This document shows positions 3,308 through 42,987 of a DNA stretch of 47,737 bases, piece by piece (within the stretch, counting starts at the first letter, position 1; each line of letters starts with the position of its first letter). The DNA comes from a virus. Lineage: Duplodnaviria; Heunggongvirae; Uroviricota; Caudoviricetes. Both the position numbers and the translations under genes were made by a program. The stretch lies in the IMG/VR virus record IMGVR_UViG_2541047873_000005; one strand, given 5' to 3'. The notes beneath the pieces are model-generated. The model worked only from the letters and a program-made list of their open reading frames with translations, was not told the DNA's origin and made no database searches.

Positions 3308-3883
3308 CTACGGCAGTGCTGGCCATTCAATATCCTGTGCAGTTGACGTATCAACACGGTTCAGCAATACCCGATACTTTTTCCATGCTTCCAGCAACGA
3401 GATTTCTTCCTCCGTTGCAATTTCCAGATCTGCAGCATCCTGAAGCGGCGCAATATGCTCACTGGCTACCTGCATCAGGTTGTTTTTTGTTTCTTCCGCC
3501 TCCCGGATCCGGAACAGTTTTTCTGCTTCCGTATCCTTCACCCAGGCTGTGCCGTTCCACTTCTGAAACTCCCCTTCCGGGGATAACCAGGTGACATTTT
3601 CCGGTAATGGGCCAAGTTCAGAAATAAATAACGCGTCGCCGGAAGCCACGTCATAGACGGTTTTACCCCGATGATCTTCAACGAGATGCCACGATGCCTC
3701 ATCACTGTTGAAAACAGCCACGAAGCCAGCCGGAATATCTGGCGGTGCAATATCGGTACTGTTTGCTGGCAGACCTGTATGAGGCGGAATATATGCGTCA
3801 CCTTCACCAATAAATTCATTAGTTCCTGCCAGCAGATTATAAATTTTTATGGTCCGTGGTTGTTCACTCATTCTGAATGCCAT
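3308..3883 (-). CDS. tfa: Tail fibre assembly protein Tfa
   Basis: N-terminus [20 protein letters not shown] matches lambda Tfa along its length; ATG overlaps the stf stop (TAATG). Confidence 0.85.
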
Positions 3884-28054: not shown

Positions 28055-28325
28055 GATGTTACCGTAGTATGTGAGTATCCATCGAATAGATACCAAGCAA
28101 AAAAGCTCCCGAAGGAGCCTTCATTTTCACTTTTTTAAATCCAACGACAGACGGCTGGCATTTAAGTATTGTGAAATATTATCAAATGTAATCATCATTG
28201 ATTTACAAAAGATACATTTTGCCCCGAAAGGATTCATGTCAGAAACATCAAAAGATGATGTTCTATACTGGGAACCATGACAACACGGGCATCTAAAGTG
28301 AATATGGTTTGTAATATTGTCTACC

Positions 28326-28538
28326 TCAAAGCGCCACTACATGAACAGCGGCAGGACCTTTAGGTCCGTTCTCAATACCAAATTCAACTTCCTGATTCTC
28401 AGTTAATGTTTTGAAATCGTTGCTCTGAATTGCTGAGAAATGGACAAACACATCTTTGCTGCCATCTTTCGGCGTGATGAAACCAAAACCTTTTTCAGGG
28501 TTAAACCATTTCACTAAACCAGTCATTTTGTTAGACAT
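28326..28538 (-). CDS. cspI: Cold shock protein CspI
   Basis: 70 aa [70 protein letters not shown]; RNP1/RNP2 cold-shock domain motifs. Confidence 0.9.
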
Positions 28539-28901
28539 AATTATTACCTTTTGAAGAAATTAGCCCTTGGGCAGAATGGTCCGAAAAAAAATATCAGAGA
28601 GAAAAACCAACAAGGAAATCTCAAGAGGTACAAATAATAAAATTATAACAATGACTGCTTCAGATAAATTTGTAACAAACCAGAACACCATTAACGCATG
28701 ATTAACCACCCATAGCAAGGATTACTTTTGTAAAGAAAAACACAGCAATGAAAGAATAGCTTTATTTATTAATAATAACGTGTCATTCTGATTAAGACCT
28801 TTTATCTTACCCTTAAGATTTCAGGAATTTTGGCTCATGGAAGAGTCCTTTTTATTTAAATTTTACATTCCGCGATGTAAATGTTCCGATTTAATATTAC
28901 C

Positions 28902-30929: not shown

Positions 30930-31210
30930 GAGATTGTGGTGCTTTTTGTGGGAGTCATCCACTTACGCACTTTGTTTTGCCATGCCAGCAGTTAGCTTCT
31001 GCTGTAAAACTATTCATGCAGCAAACCTGCACTTCACCACAATGGTTAGCATACTTTTCCTGATTAAGATTTTGCCAAATATGCTAGCCATTGTTTCATG
31101 TATTGGACCTCCTTACTTTTTATTAAAGAGATCCAATATTCACTACTCTGTCCGTATCTCTACTCAGGCATCAGCCTTCTTCGTTATCGTATACAGACGA
31201 GCGATGAATT

Positions 31211-31426
31211 TTAATCAGTAATGATGACATTTGCTGCTGCAGGACCTTTAGCACCACTCTCTATAGAGAAGGTAACCTTTTGACCTTCAAATAAGGTTCG
31301 ATAATTATCATTCTGAATCGCAGAAAAATGCACAAACACATCTTTACTACCATCAACAGGAGAAATAAAGCCGAAACCTTTATCAGCGTTAAACCATTTT
31401 ACTAAACCAGTCATTTTATTTGACAT
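31211..31426 (-). CDS. cspB: Cold shock protein CspB
   Basis: 71 aa [71 protein letters not shown]. Confidence 0.9.
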
Positions 31427-31726
31427 TCTACATTCCTTAACTTGAGCCTTTCGGCATAAATGGTTTGCATAACAGAAACGACTTCGTACTTAATTGGAGA
31501 GACTCAAAGAAGGAATAAGTGAATAACACCTGAAATGAGAACTGCTTTAGTAAACTACTTCGTATATCGTCTGTTCTTCAAACCGACGCAATCATTAACG
31601 CATAGTTGAACATATGAAGCAATGTTTATTTTAGACATCCAGCCATCTTCAACCCCATCAAAAAACTATAGCTTTCTTCAGGAACGTGTGTATAGTGCGC
31701 CAAGTTATCAGTATTAAGGAATTTTT

Positions 31727-34522: not shown

Positions 34523-34774
34523 TTATTCTTCTGCAAAAGCAGAAAAGCCAGCTTTTATTCCGATCTCTTTCAATGCCTGTAATGAAGTGACAAACTCACC
34601 TTCGCGCAAGATAAATCCGTCCGTGACCCGAGCATCCACAAAATTAATTAACGCAGCCCCATTCTTTCGCAAACACATAATGCGGTAATGACTAACAAGA
34701 TTTCCATTTTCAACGCACACAGCATAGAGGCCATCTTCACAAAAAATTTTACGCAGTTCTTCGATGTTCATCAT
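34523..34774 (-). CDS. Hypothetical protein (83 aa), unknown function
   Basis: ORF with AAGGA RBS 6 nt upstream of ATG; sits between rem and hok; no recognisable family. Confidence 0.5.
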   Translation of the reverse strand: MMNIEELRKIFCEDGLYAVCVENGNLVSHYRIMCLRKNGAALINFVDARVTDGFILREGEFVTSLQALKEIGIKAGFSAFAEE

Positions 34775-34892
34775 CAGAATCCTTCCGGATAATTAGCTCT
34801 CCCCTTTAAGGGACCATCCCTCTTATCCCTGCGCGCTACTTAAGTATTTTTGATTCTATTCCGGCACCGTCCAGATCTTCAAACGCGTTGAA

Positions 34893-34923
34893 AATAAAAA
34901 CAAAAACCCGCCGAAGCGGGTTA
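34893..34923 (-). terminator. Rho-independent terminator at 3' end of hok mRNA
   Basis: Hairpin AACCCGC-ttcg-GCGGGTT followed by long U-run on the minus strand. Confidence 0.55.
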
Positions 34924-34990
34924 AGTGCGGGTGCGTTGAGGATGCCTGCCACATCAGAGGTGGCGAGGGATTTCTCCCTCGCCGGGTCTC

Positions 34991-35146
34991 TTACTCCTCA
35001 GGTTCGTAAGCTGTGAAGACAGCGACCTCCGTCTGGCCGGTTCGGATTCGTACCTCGCAGAGGTCTTTCCTCGTTACCAGTGCCGTCACTATGACGGTTA
35101 AACAGATGACGATCAGGGCGATTAACATCGCCTTTTGCTGCTTCAT
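34991..35146 (-). CDS. hokD: Hok-family membrane toxin HokD (RelF)
   Basis: 51 aa MKQQKAMLIALIVICLTVIVTALVTRKDLCEVRIRTGQTEVAVFTAYEPEE matches HokD; track ORF 34991..35203 carries an in-frame upstream extension. Confidence 0.9.
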   Translation of the reverse strand: MKQQKAMLIALIVICLTVIVTALVTRKDLCEVRIRTGQTEVAVFTAYEPEE

Positions 35147-35935
35147 AGCCTGCTTCTCCTTGCCTTTCGGCTCGTAAGAGGCTAACCTACATGTGTCTAG
35201 CATGAAATTGGCCTCAGATTAATGTTAAGCGTCTTGCAGGACGCGTAATGTTAACTGGGGCTTTTCTCTATCTGCCTTTGGTGTTCATGCCCGAGGCAGA
35301 TAGCCTCAAGCACCCGCAGCCATTCTACTTAACTACCGTTACCTCGCCAATATGAAATCAGTCAGAAAGGCGATCCATAAGAACAATAGCAAGACAATAA
35401 ATCGCCATTACAGCCGTAATAGCCAGCGCACATTTGAGAACCAGCACCACAACCTCCTGTATTGGACGTAGACCAGTCCTGATGAATATGAGGCTGTCTC
35501 GTCAGTGATTCAATACAACTATTGGGTATAGTTTCTCTGATTTTTTCTGTGGAAATGGGGCACAACCACTAGTCACCACCAGCACTTCTTTTAATACGCA
35601 AAGTCCGACACAAGCTAACCTTCTAGTCCGCTTTGAGCGAAAAACAGCCATAATTTAGTGCCACGTATATAATGATAGAGCTATTCAAGCTAGCAATTCA
35701 CATGTAAAAATTCAGAGGGTAGAAGCACATAGTTATAAATGTTGGCTCCATCGACAAATTGCGGTCTCAAGTACATTTATTAATGTTGCCCCCGCATTAA
35801 CAAATCATCAAGGTGACGACATGGACGATATTAATATCAGCCTCGACGAACTTAACACTATTGATTTATCCCCCTTAATCCTGAACCGCCCCGGGAATCC
35901 TGGAGACTAAACTTCCTGAGAAAGAGGTAAACAGG

Positions 35936-36262
35936 ATGACTAAAAATACTCGTTTTTCCCCCGAAGTCCGTCAACGGGCAGTCCGTATGGTTCTGGAAAG
36001 TCAGAGCGAATATGACTCACAATGGGCGACAATTTGTTCCATTGCTCCAAAGATTGGCTGTACGCCGGAGACTCTGCGTGTCTGGGTTCGCCAGCATGAG
36101 CGGGATACCGGGGGCGGTGATGGAGGGCTCACCACCGCTGAACGTCAGCGTCTGAAAGAGCTGGAACGTGAAAATCGTGAACTGCGCCGCAGTAACGATA
36201 TCCTTCGCCAGGCTTCCGCTTATTTTGCGAAGGCGGAGTTCGACCGCCTCTGGAAAAAATGA
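35936..36262 (+). CDS. IS629 transposase OrfA (HTH)
   Basis: 108 aa [37 protein letters not shown]...; ends next to an A6 run usable for -1 frameshift into orfB. Confidence 0.9.
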
Positions 36263-37149
36263 TGCCACTGCTGGATAAGCTGCGTGAGCAGTACGGGGTC
36301 GGACCGCTATGCAGCGAACTGCATATTGCCCCGTCAACGTATTACCACTGTCAGCAACAGCGACATCATCCGGATAAACGCAGTGCCCGTGCGCAGCGCG
36401 ATGACTGGCTGAAGAAAGAGATACAGCGCGTATACGATGAAAATCACAAGGTATACGGTGTGCGTAAAGTCTGGCGTCAGTTGTTACGGGAAGGTATCAG
36501 AGTGGCCAGATGCACTGTGGCACGTCTCATGGCGGTTATGGGACTTGCCGGTGTTCTCCGGGGTAAAAAGGTCCGTACGACCATCAGCCGGAAAGCCGTT
36601 GCCGCAGGCGACCGCGTAAACCGTCAGTTCGTGGCAGAACGACCTGACCAGCTGTGGGTGGCTGATTTTACTTACGTCAGCACATGGCGGGGCTTCGTCT
36701 ATGTGGCGTTCATCATTGATGTGTTTGCCGGATACATCGTGGGGTGGCGGGTCTCATCGTCCATGGAAACGACATTCGTGCTGGATGCACTGGAGCAGGC
36801 GTTATGGGCCCGTCGACCGTCCGGCACGGTCCATCACAGTGATAAAGGTTCTCAGTATGTATCGCTGGCCTACACACAGCGGCTTAAGGAAGCCGGATTA
36901 CTGGCATCAACAGGAAGTACAGGCGACTCGTATGACAACGCGATGGCGGAGAGCATCAATGGTCTTTACAAAGCGGAGGTAATACACCGTAAGAGCTGGA
37001 AAAACCGTGCAGAAGTGGAACTGGCCACACTCACGTGGGTGGACTGGTATAACAATCGACGATTGCTGGAAAGGCTGGGCCATACTCCTCCGGCAGAAGC
37101 AGAAAAAGCTTATTATGCTTCCATCGGAAACGATGATCTGGCAGCCTGA
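36259..37149 (+). CDS. IS629 transposase OrfB (DDE integrase core)
   Basis: 296 aa, -1 frame overlap with orfA; DDE motifs (WVADFTY..., HSDKGSQY..., DNAMAES). Confidence 0.9.
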
Positions 37150-37385
37150 GTTCACAGATAAAACACTCTCCAGGAAACCCGGGGCGGTTCATCCAGAGTA
37201 AGCTGCCAGTTACCTGCTTTGATATCACAAAGTATCTTTCTAGCCTAGGTGATGGAAGAGCGGAGATAAGACTGCTAACCCATATTTGCGGTTTTCACTT
37301 TCGTCCCGAAAATCCACAGGTACCATTTGGTCCGTGCTTTCAAAGCAGCCAAGGTAGATCTGCAATTCCGGATGACATTAACGGG

Positions 37386-42928: not shown

Positions 42929-42987
42929 TTTTCTGGTGACGTTTGGCGGTATCAGTTTTACTCCGTGACTGCTCTGCCGCCGTTTTT
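42929..42987 (+). ncRNA. dicF: DicF small RNA (ftsZ-targeting, Hfq-dependent) with intrinsic terminator
   Basis: TTTCTGGTGACGTTTGGCGGTATCAGTTTTACTCCGTGACTGCTCTGCCGCC followed by T5 matches the recalled DicF sequence; located between ydfC and dicB. Confidence 0.85.

Follow-up and report, generated by a model that had tools for sequence, protein, structure and literature searches.

Organization of the hok locus

The window analyzed in this study, a DNA stretch of 47,737 nucleotides, contains a hok toxin gene on its minus strand. The encoded Hok was identical to HokD of E. coli K-12 and matched Pfam HOK_GEF (PF01848; 3e-23, 81.6 bits, cut-off 22). The toxin gene is intact, as an earlier sequence-only reading had stated. 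The nucleotide sequence of hok was that of the CDS annotated as HokD (WP_000813254.1) in the K-12-like and CFSAN061770 records, and the mok reading frame matched PHROG 251, "MokW-like host killing", at 7.6e-33. The following features were identified on the hok-sense strand, from the promoter to the terminator.

35322..35350, minus strand: predicted hok/mok mRNA promoter from a consensus scan, with TTGGCG (35350..35345), a 17-nt spacer and TAGAAT (35327..35322); predicted start at G 35315
34896..35315, minus strand: predicted full-length hok mRNA of about 420 nt, from the predicted start to the terminator
35304..35315, minus strand: tac (translational activator), GGGUGCUUGAGG, the 5' end of the mRNA, nearly invariant in relatives and aligned with GGCGCUUGAGG of plasmid R1
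35268..35303, minus strand: conserved 5' hairpin adjoining tac, a 10-bp inverted repeat with the arms CTATCTGCCT (35303..35294) and AGGCAGATAG (35277..35268)
35257..35265, minus strand: ucb (upstream complementary box, anti-SD), AAAAGCCCC
35210..35217, minus strand: mok Shine-Dalgarno (SD) region, CUGAGGCC, of which GAGG (35215..35212) is invariant in relatives
34991..35203, minus strand: mok reading frame of 70 codons, an in-frame N-terminal extension of hok, with its ATG at 35203 after GAGG
35178..35182, minus strand: dcb (downstream complementary box), GCCUC within GCCUCUUAC
35161..35153, minus strand: hok SD, AAGGAGAAG
34991..35146, minus strand: hok toxin gene, 51 amino acid residues, MKQQKAMLIALIVICLTVIVTALVTRKDLCEVRIRTGQTEVAVFTAYEPEE
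34962..34983, minus strand: 3' UTR hairpin, GGCGAGGGAGAAAUCCCUCGCC, a probable road-block to 3' trimming
34929..34941, minus strand: fbi (fold-back inhibitory) element, CCUCAACGCACCC, complementary to tac (inverted repeats I3 and I6)
34896..34922, minus strand: intrinsic hok mRNA terminator, a 7-bp stem (34922..34905) with 5 GC pairs and the loop TTCG, followed by TTTGTTTTTA; common to K-12 hokD

The terminator is the strong hairpin with a U tail that had been noticed at 34893..34923. For comparison, 87 distinct loci with identities of 70–100% were aligned, and the structures tested on them were those derived from the sequence of this locus. In essentially all of these relatives, a TAnnAT box was fixed 6 nt before GGGTGC, despite unrelated sequence further upstream. 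In the divergent relatives, similarity ran from the -10 box and transcription start to fbi and no further. Moreover, Rfam RF01794 matched at full length on the hok-sense strand (35315..35141; 116 bits against a gathering score of 59).

The Hok protein was unchanged in 69 of the 87 loci, most of which were on viral contigs. The mok ATG was present in 86 of them, while the frame and length of mok differed: mok was in frame with hok in 67 loci, terminated on the hok ATG after 19 codons in 12 and was in another frame in the rest. That the ATG is kept while frame and length vary points to a role of mok in coupling and not as a conserved protein. Two ORFs of 30 and 49 amino acid residues upstream had no match in Pfam, PHROGs or NCBIfam.

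Predicted alternative folds of the hok mRNA

The predicted full-length hok mRNA folded with a minimum free energy (MFE) of -175.1 kcal/mol (z = -8.1 against shuffles). In this fold, fbi was paired with nucleotides 1–12 of the mRNA, that is with tac, and ucb sequestered the mok SD. When the mRNA was trimmed from its 3' end to 34955 or 34950, the predicted pairing changed to tac/ucb and mok SD/dcb. No switch was predicted for an mRNA trimmed to 34960, so that the predicted rearrangement depends on where trimming ends. The structure prediction thus reproduced the switch of the R1 type, in which the same rearrangement from tac/fbi to tac/ucb was described for hok (PMC9841398, PMC1635323).

Both folds were maintained among the relatives. 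Across the 87 sequences, 99.0% of the cells were paired for tac/fbi, 98.3% for ucb/SD, 99.3% for tac/ucb and 100% for SD/dcb, whereas only 33–57% were paired when the partners were slid by 1–3 columns. RNAalifold on the 87 loci independently recovered the tac/fbi helix and the 5' hairpin, both with compensatory changes. One pair of fbi/tac showed GC to AU double changes in 4 sequences, and in the 5' hairpin compensatory double changes were found at two pairs, e.g., AU to GC or UA in alignment columns 23/55. Because their columns hardly varied, the tac/ucb and SD/dcb helices gave little covariation; their high pairing is consistent with the switch model.

The 5' hairpin is the 10-bp inverted repeat that the sequence-only reading had placed at about 35265..35304 and called consistent with the fold-back structures of hok mRNAs. 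This repeat is more than chance. It was paired in 96% of the cells and was also found in the leaders of R1, hokC, hokB and hokE. It is indeed part of the regulatory folds of hok mRNAs; however, it is the 5' hairpin adjoining tac, and the actual fold-back structure is the long-range pairing of 35315..35304 with fbi at 34941..34929, which had been missed.

The 3' UTR hairpin was also a helix in the RNAalifold consensus, with compensatory GC to AU changes in 15 sequences. By analogy with R1, it is probably the point where slow 3' trimming stops (PMC1635323). The fbi element, whose 3' end is at 34929, lies 21–34 nt beyond the end of this hairpin at 34962, a spacing that would be compatible with the 39-nt 3' trimming reported for R1 (PMC1635323).

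Predicted Sok antisense RNA and its promoter

The sequence-only reading had proposed to look for an antisense promoter on the plus strand at about 35150..35320. The following features were identified there.

35160..35188, plus strand: putative sok promoter, read from the sequence, with TTGCCT (35160..35165), a 17-nt spacer and TAACCT (35183..35188)
35195..35271, plus strand: predicted Sok antisense RNA of about 77 nt, in which a 5' tail of about 11 nt, single-stranded, precedes a long hairpin and the 3' end is rich in U
35195..35215, both strands: hypervariable patch, the Sok 5' tail on one strand and the mok start with the Sok-target loop on the other

The exact hexamers and spacing of the sok promoter recurred in most of the 87 relatives, and its layout matched the sequence upstream of the annotated sokC, sokB and sokE of K-12. 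Its consensus matches are modest, 4 of 6 at -35 and 3 of 6 at -10. In a simple consensus scan that found the hok promoter, the sok promoter fell below the threshold because TAACCT matches the consensus at only three positions. The miss is not read as absence, since an identical TAACCT box was experimentally validated in sokW, where antitoxin activity was lost once this box was altered in the "pro-less" mutation (PMC8621323, primers YO-421/422). From this promoter, a Sok antisense RNA should be transcribed opposite the mok translation start region. Both of its predicted ends were placed by homology to annotated sokC. The predicted RNA folded at -30.7 kcal/mol (z = -4.4) with its 5' tail unpaired in the centroid, and 70 of its 77 nucleotides were identical to the homologous region of sokW.

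The Rfam "sok" match was rejected as direct evidence for the antisense RNA, because the match is to the hok-sense strand and extends no further than the hok AUG; it supports the leader and not the antisense RNA as such. On the plus strand, the "sok" match was insignificant (18 bits, below the gathering score). Matches to Rfam isrK (25.7 bits), rsmX and ceN48 did not reach the respective gathering scores either and were regarded as chance matches.

The sequence-only reading had left open how this hok copy is silenced, either by a Sok-like antisense RNA or not at all. Given that a conserved antisense promoter and complementary elements were found, the Sok-like antisense RNA is supported at the level of sequence. 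That silencing should be an open matter is not supported, as all canonical silencing elements are present and conserved.

Comparison with K-12 hokD and surroundings of the locus

The surroundings of hok differ from those of hokD in the Qin prophage of K-12, where hokD (relF) is part of relB-relE-hokD. Two features mark the differences.

35160..35161, no strand assigned: breakpoint of K-12-type hokD; sequence up to 35160 is common to relE-hokD, and sequence above it is absent from K-12
about 35882..37187, plus strand: IS3-family insertion (IS629/IS3411-like) in a DUF4209 gene, with orfA, orfB and an ALIL frameshift pseudoknot, outside the hok/sok unit

Matches of the K-12 type began at query position 741, which corresponds to 35160 of the window. 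From there to the terminator, a region that covers the hok SD, CDS, road-block hairpin, fbi and terminator, the K-12-like NZ_LT615377 differed from this locus at two positions. The downstream neighbors, rem, ydfU and ydfT, are also alike. However, K-12 hokD lacks the hok promoter, tac, 5' hairpin, ucb, mok start, Sok target and sok with its promoter, and relE stands in their place. The full leader was found in 4281 of 5426 complete E. coli genomes and the relE-hokD junction in 1166. K-12 relB-relE-hokD is thus a truncated minority form, and the earlier view of it as the normal context of hokD had the relation backwards. Being a 5'-truncated derivative, it is unsuitable as the reference form of hokD. 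With a truncated minority form on one side and a fully equipped copy on the other, the silencing of the copy studied here is no open question.

That relBE is missing, as previously noted, was confirmed. tblastn with RelB and RelE of K-12 against the whole window gave only noise (E > 1), and blastn of the K-12 DNA from flxA to relE against the whole window gave no match. At this locus, therefore, relB-relE is not directly upstream of hok in one transcription unit as it is in K-12. Nor does the IS-disrupted gene take the position of relBE in a functional sense, as had been suggested: it is a divergent DUF4209 gene on the plus strand whose start, at 35821, is some 500 bp away from the hok promoter on its upstream side. 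The insertion had been named IS629. It is an IS3-family element within that gene; its closest named annotation is "IS3-like element IS3411 family", and IS3411 is an isoform of IS629. When 5426 complete genomes were searched for the exact junction of the IS with the DUF4209 gene, a single partial match in two pieces was obtained.

These comparisons bear on two other explanations of the locus. According to the first, hok has no antisense RNA to control it and is expressed just by co-transcription with genes upstream, as is hokD with relBE. K-12 hokD has no sok and lies within the relBE transcription unit, and at this locus a short hydrophobic ORF lies just upstream of hok on the same strand. However, the conserved hok promoter stands at a fixed distance from a conserved 5' end and similarity to distant relatives starts there; the locus also retains, in conserved form, the antisense promoter, the Sok hairpin with its U tail, mok, tac, ucb, dcb and fbi; and the next upstream gene is divergent and interrupted by an IS whose genes point away from hok. 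Simple co-transcription is thus very improbable. According to the second, the nearby insertion deregulates hok/sok by read-through or by separation from a regulator, as was proposed for hokA, hokC and hokE of K-12, in which IS150 and IS186 lie directly beside or inside the loci. Here the insertion is 567 bp upstream of the predicted start of the hok mRNA and outside the unit, the transposase genes, on the plus strand, point away from hok, and the region 35881..34685 was 100% identical to that of the IS-free CFSAN061770 locus. The IS elements of K-12 cut regulatory elements themselves, e.g., fbi of hokC, which is not so here. As the hok/sok unit is untouched, an effect of the IS on hok is rejected and has, in our view, only the slightest chance of being right.

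In place of both explanations, the locus is, judged from its sequence, very probably a canonical type I toxin-antitoxin module of the hok/mok/sok family with no part missing. It would represent the hokD allele at full length, as a moron of a Qin-like lambdoid prophage.

Comparison with other hok/sok systems

The closest known system is hokW-sokW of Sakai prophage 5 (Sp5) of O157 and 933W-type Stx2 phages (Takada et al., 2021; PMC8621323). From the mRNA start to fbi, 363 of 387 nucleotides (94%) were identical between hokW-sokW and this locus. The two were identical in tac, 5' hairpin, ucb, extended Sok hairpin, dcb, hok SD and fbi as well as in the -35 and -10 hexamers of sok, including the TAACCT box. 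Similar to this locus, hokW-sokW is in a prophage, although the prophage here is Qin-like while that of hokW-sokW is an Stx phage. Both Hok proteins have 51 amino acid residues and are identical to residue 44, after which HokW ends in ...FVDYESEK and Hok of this locus in ...FTAYEPEE. Six of the seven differences between sokW and Sok fell in the recognition tail, which comprises the first 16 nt; one Sok RNA could therefore probably not stand in for the other. The two loci also differ in the -35 region of the promoter and at the 3' end, where this locus has a clear intrinsic terminator and the aligned hokW sequence diverges. A search for the HokW C-terminus pattern among the first-collected loci gave no match, and Stx2 phage I was then used; locus L142 holds all six tested primers of PMC8621323.

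For hokW-sokW, the toxin, the antitoxin RNA (by northern blot), the dependence on the TAACCT box and the involvement of RNase III and Hfq were shown, and the system aids lysis and phage release on induction (PMC8621323). Expression and instability of Sok RNA, repression of Hok and cleavage of the duplex by RNase III were shown both for hokW-sokW (PMC8621323) and for R1 (PMC1635323).

The element order and both alternative mRNA folds of this locus are also those of hok/mok/sok (parB) of plasmid R1 (PMC9841398, PMC1635323). In both, the region directly preceding hok overlaps with the antisense promoter, and Sok consists of a 5' tail followed by a hairpin. Different from R1, however, mok of this locus is in frame with hok, the Sok hairpin has an extra stem of about 20 nt, which makes Sok about 77 nt long instead of 64 nt, and the copy is chromosomal, in a prophage, and not on a plasmid. 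R1 Hok is only distantly similar; HokW, which is nearly identical to Hok of this locus, is 44% identical to it (PMC8621323).

Similar to this locus, E. coli hokC/mokC/sokC (gef) has an in-frame mok, a like promoter layout and a very similar 5' end, GGGTGCTTGAGGCT, and annotated sokC ends on GGGGCTTTTCTCTAT, as does the predicted Sok. The nucleotide identity between the two loci was about 75%, and sokC lacks the extension of the Sok hairpin. Moreover, IS186 removes fbi in K-12, 22 nt after hokC, whereas fbi is intact here.

Proposed function

Every element of the module is present, ordered and conserved, two alternative folds are predicted, and the locus is nearly identical to an experimentally tested system. 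For the source strain, we infer the transcript ends, processing, Sok expression and toxicity. The hok mRNA would be transcribed from its own promoter, starting at about 35315, and would be inert at full length, with its 5' tac paired with the 3' fbi and the mok SD hidden by ucb. Slow 3' trimming back to the road-block hairpin would remove fbi, upon which tac would pair with ucb and the mok SD would enter the dcb stem, making the mRNA translatable, with translation of hok coupled to that of mok. The trimmed mRNA would also expose the loop recognized by the 5' tail of Sok. Transcribed from the plus strand by TTGCCT-17-TAACCT, the Sok RNA of about 77 nt would bind this loop, block mok/hok translation and mark the duplex for RNase III. 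Once the supply of Sok drops, Hok would be made and the inner membrane damaged. The biological role may be to aid lysis and phage release as in hokW-sokW; prophage retention and phage exclusion are alternatives.

Some chromosomal loci, hokA, hokB and hokC, were reported to be unable to mediate post-segregational killing (bioRxiv 10.1101/2025.08.07.668861), so an intact sequence is no guarantee of activity. Like several such loci, the module could be complete in sequence but a functionally silent relic in the source strain, passively carried by a defective prophage; its sok promoter is weak by consensus, and the surrounding window is a Qin-like prophage in which an IS has inserted close by. However, no element of the unit was damaged. 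Identical copies of the unit were found in about 150 complete genomes, and it was 99.2–99.4% identical to that of mEp460 and HannyBb, which are viable temperate phages. The 94% identity to the active hokW-sokW also argues against a relic, and the unchanged Hok in 69 of 87 loci together with the maintained alternative helices suggests continued selection. A silent relic is thus unlikely, though less so than the two explanations rejected above.

Variation of the Sok tail and implications

Among the 69 loci with identical Hok, the column entropy peaked in the patch that holds the Sok 5' tail (0.44–0.83 bits) and was near 0 in the hok CDS. In these loci the patch was the main variable stretch, and the adjoining sok promoter was fixed. 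The 87 loci had 27 distinct Sok tails. In 7 of the 8 genomes in which it could be checked, co-resident full-length copies bore different tails.

A tentative reading, which we hold at somewhat less than even chance and which follows general antisense-RNA principles, is that diversifying selection acts on the patch 35195..35215 as a specificity cassette. If true, the patch would work like plasmid incompatibility groups, and the prophage-borne hok/sok copies of one cell, of which there are up to ten in genomes such as O157:H7, would be controlled independently. Loss or induction of one prophage could then not be covered by the Sok of another. This idea was not found stated for prophage hok/sok in the searchable literature and may already be described elsewhere.

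The finding is of little weight alone. The module is a routine member of one of the best-studied families of RNA-controlled toxin-antitoxin systems, and about four-fifths of the complete E. coli genomes have it. At such loci, annotation covers the hokD CDS alone, and RefSeq-style records show neither the Sok antitoxin RNA nor the mok frame; in the leader search of the complete genomes, the annotated features there were "none". Annotation without the antitoxin RNA and mok invites a false puzzle over how hok is silenced. Finally, the variable Sok tail offers a modest starting point for studies on the coexistence of several copies of one RNA antitoxin system in a cell.

Intact hok Gene and Complete mRNA Leader

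The hok gene encodes an intact protein of 51 aa with a match to Pfam HOK_GEF (3e-23), and its nucleotide sequence was identical to that of the HokD CDS (WP_000813254.1) of two genomes, one K-12-like and the other that of CFSAN061770, a strain with an IS-free copy of this locus. The sequence-only reading had described an intact Hok, a strong 3' terminator and a 10-bp inverted repeat in the leader. All three were found, and the inverted repeat is the conserved 5' hairpin of the mRNA. Comparison with other hok loci, which that reading had proposed, was carried out by reading and aligning the leader with an R1-type parB locus and K-12 hokC, hokB and hokE. All canonical hok mRNA elements were present in the canonical order, including the translational activator (tac), the upstream and downstream complementary boxes (ucb and dcb) and the fold-back inhibitory element (fbi). 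After dcb follow the hok Shine-Dalgarno (SD) sequence and CDS, a GC-rich hairpin, fbi and the terminator.

Features of the hok locus and its upstream neighbor
35350..35322, minus: hok promoter, TTGGCG-17-TAGAAT
35315..35304, minus: tac, the mRNA 5' end, GGGUGCUUGAGG
35303..35294 and 35277..35268, minus: 5' hairpin, 10 bp, CTATCTGCCT / AGGCAGATAG
35265..35257, minus: ucb, AAAAGCCCC
35203, minus: ATG of the mok frame, 70 codons, in frame with hok, GAGG SD
35182..35178, minus: dcb, GCCUC
35146..34991, minus: hok CDS
34983..34962, minus: GC-rich hairpin 3' of hok
34941..34929, minus: fbi, CCUCAACGCACCC
34922..34896, minus: terminator, 3' hairpin and T-run
35160..35165, plus: sok promoter -35, TTGCCT
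35183..35188, plus: sok promoter -10, TAACCT, after a 17-nt spacer
35195..35271, plus: predicted Sok RNA, ~77 nt, from G 35195
35821, plus: start of the DUF4209 gene, next upstream of hok and divergent
~35882..37187: IS3-family element (IS629/IS3411-like) interrupting the DUF4209 gene; orfA, orfB and ALIL frameshift pseudoknot (36217..36333)

The leader also gave a full-length hit to Rfam model RF01794, spanning 35315..35141 on the hok strand with 116 bits (gathering score, 59). Because this hit stops at the hok AUG, what the model captures is the leader of hok mRNA, despite its label of sok antitoxin. No annotated feature covers this leader in RefSeq records; thus, Sok and mok are unannotated at such loci.

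Fold-back and Its Conservation

Structure prediction, also suggested by the sequence-only reading, gave a fold of -175.1 kcal/mol (z = -8.1) for the full-length mRNA (35315..34896), in which the first 12 nucleotides are base-paired to fbi and ucb sequesters the mok SD. With the 3' end cut to 34955 or 34950, which removes fbi, the predicted pairing changed to tac/ucb and mok SD/dcb, and with the 3' end at 34960 no switch was predicted, so the predicted switch is sensitive to where trimming ends. The same rearrangement has been described for R1 hok mRNA (PMC9841398, PMC1635323). The loop atop the mok SD/dcb stem, CUAGACA (mRNA nucleotides 116-122), has complementarity to the 5'-terminal nucleotides of the predicted Sok.

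A total of 133 loci encoding relatives of this Hok were gathered from viral and genome collections, of which 87 distinct full-length units (70-100% identity) were aligned. Without guidance, RNAalifold retrieved both the long-range helix between tac and fbi and the 5' hairpin, and its consensus contained 16 pairs with compensatory double changes. The paired cells were 99.0% for tac/fbi, 98.3% for ucb/mok SD, 99.3% for tac/ucb and 100% for mok SD/dcb, but only 33-57% when the partners were offset by 1-3 columns. Variation was almost absent from the tac, ucb, SD and dcb columns, which limits the covariation evidence and is expected of bases held in two alternative pairings. Moreover, the spacing between the hok -10 box and tac is constant even in relatives with unrelated sequence farther upstream, and similarity to distant relatives runs from the -10 box to fbi and ends there. 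Thus, what is conserved as a unit is the mRNA together with a promoter of its own.

The mok ATG was kept among the relatives, while mok length and phase varied. In 12 relatives (e.g., loci L009, L019, and L028), a 3-nt deletion and a 1-nt insertion reduce the mok ORF to 19 codons and make its stop codon overlap the ATG of hok (AUGA), and in 7 further relatives mok is in another frame. The conserved part of mok is only its start, consistent with mok acting in translational coupling.

In addition, UACGAA around the Hok Tyr47 codon (UAC at 35008..35006; 35001..35011, minus strand) was invariant in 87 of 87 relatives. It is located in a predicted hairpin loop and matches the reported context of TadA A-to-I editing of hok mRNAs, which recodes Tyr to Cys and is mentioned for hokC, hokD, and hokE (bioRxiv 10.1101/2025.08.07.668861).

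Predicted Sok Antisense RNA

How this hok is silenced had been regarded as open, and the plus strand at about 35150..35320 had been named as the place to look for an antisense promoter. TTGCCT-17-TAACCT was found there at 35160..35188. The predicted Sok starts with ~11 unpaired nucleotides, followed by a long hairpin and GGGGCUUUUCUCUAU as its 3' end at 35271. The regions upstream of annotated K-12 sokC, sokB, and sokE have the same layout as this promoter, and the last 15 nt of annotated sokC are the same as those of the predicted Sok. Absence of a conserved antisense promoter or complementary elements would have spoken against such regulation; the hexamers and their spacing were mostly unchanged across the 87 relatives, and the complementary helices were paired in 98.3-100% of cells. 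With a complete leader, the fold-back and a predicted Sok gene, silencing is no longer an open question. The locus is very probably a complete, ordinary hok/mok/sok module, with textbook silencing by mRNA end-pairing and Sok antisense RNA predicted. The structural observations of the sequence-only reading were right, but the anomaly that it inferred is not real.

The predicted Sok is longer than R1 Sok, sokC, sokB, and sokE (~57-64 nt). An extra ~20-nt stem-loop, GCGUC-UUGCAG-GACGC plus flanks, is at the tip of its hairpin (35227..35246) and mirrored in the mRNA. This stem-loop is common to the hokD/hokW group and some Kluyvera loci and is missing from an O157-type subgroup (e.g., L025) and the hokC group.

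Among characterized systems, the closest is hokW-sokW, from Sakai prophage 5 (PMC8621323). Six primers from that study were tested, and each was found exactly in the Stx2 phage I locus (L142), which therefore carries hokW-sokW. From mRNA start to fbi, 363 of 387 positions were identical between the window and L142, as were 70 of 77 positions of the predicted Sok and the sokW region; six of the seven Sok differences lie within the first 16 nt. HokW is toxic, and sokW RNA, seen on northern blots, counteracts it, with contributions of RNase III and Hfq (PMC8621323). In the same study, the "pro-less" mutagenesis primers convert TAACCT on the sok strand into GAGCCG; the hexamer targeted is the same as the -10 box at 35183..35188.

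In the 69 loci that share an identical Hok protein, sequence variation was concentrated at 35190..35215, corresponding to the Sok 5' tail and to the mok start on the opposite strand. Column entropy reached 0.83 bits in this patch (alignment columns ~111-140), and 27 tail variants were found among the 87 loci, while the adjoining sok promoter was fixed. Co-resident full-length hok/sok copies carried distinct tails in 7 of the 8 genomes examined, a small sample. This pattern of Sok tail and mok plausibly resembles diversification of antisense specificity between copies, which would fit known principles.

Comparison with K-12 hok Loci

As the sequence-only reading stated, neither relB nor relE was found in the whole window by protein or DNA searches. 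Its use of relB-relE-hokD as the reference arrangement, however, did not hold. The K-12-type relE-hokD aligns only from 35160 downwards (AGGAGAAGCAGGCTATG...), and relE replaces everything above. K-12 hokD thus retains the hok SD, CDS, 3' hairpin, fbi, and terminator and has lost the promoter, tac, ucb, mok start, Sok target, and sok; one base is left of the sok -35. Of 5426 complete E. coli genomes, 4281 contained the full leader (a match to at least 80% of 35165..35340), with a median of 2 copies and a maximum of 10, whereas 1166 contained the relE-hokD junction. Thus, relE-hokD is the derived and rarer arrangement. The work of Pedersen and Gerdes in 1999 on chromosomal hok genes reportedly agrees with this.

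Some chromosomal hok loci were reported to be inactive (bioRxiv 10.1101/2025.08.07.668861). In K-12 hokC (L004), IS186 starts 20 nt after the stop (19 nt between), removing fbi; in hokA (L006), IS150 cuts the mokA/sokA region; and in hokE (L007), IS186 is 19 nt after the gene. Different from these insertions directly at the hok units, the IS element of this locus is outside the unit, ~60 bp into the DUF4209 gene. Its closest named annotation is "IS3411 family," its genes read away from hok, and 35881..34685 is 100% identical to CFSAN061770, whose DUF4209 gene is intact. We see no way in which this insertion could affect hok/sok. The exact IS/DUF4209 junction was not found in the 5426 genomes; only strain PK5 gave a match, which was partial and in two pieces.

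Prophage Context and Role

A Qin-like lambdoid prophage makes up the window, with rem, ydfU, ydfT, cspB/cspF-type leaders, and DicF as neighboring features. Further Rfam matches above the gathering score were DicF antisense RNA (42931..42982, plus), two cspA-type thermoregulator leaders (31195..31587 and 28299..28684, minus), and IS009 RNA (3342..3540, minus); DicF and the two leaders fit such a prophage. Directly upstream of the hok promoter lies a 30-codon ORF (35358..35450, minus), preceded by AGGAGG, whose peptide product, MVLVLKCALAITAVMAIYCLAIVLMDRLSD, is strongly hydrophobic. The ORF is kept in phage mEp460 and CFSAN061770, had no match in Pfam, PHROGs, or NCBIfam, and may either encode a small membrane protein or have arisen by chance.

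After treatment with mitomycin C, sokW RNA disappears and HokW is then found in the inner membrane, and deletion of hokW-sokW halves phage release (PMC8621323). By analogy with hokW, the best precedent, the hok/sok of this prophage may help with lysis on induction.
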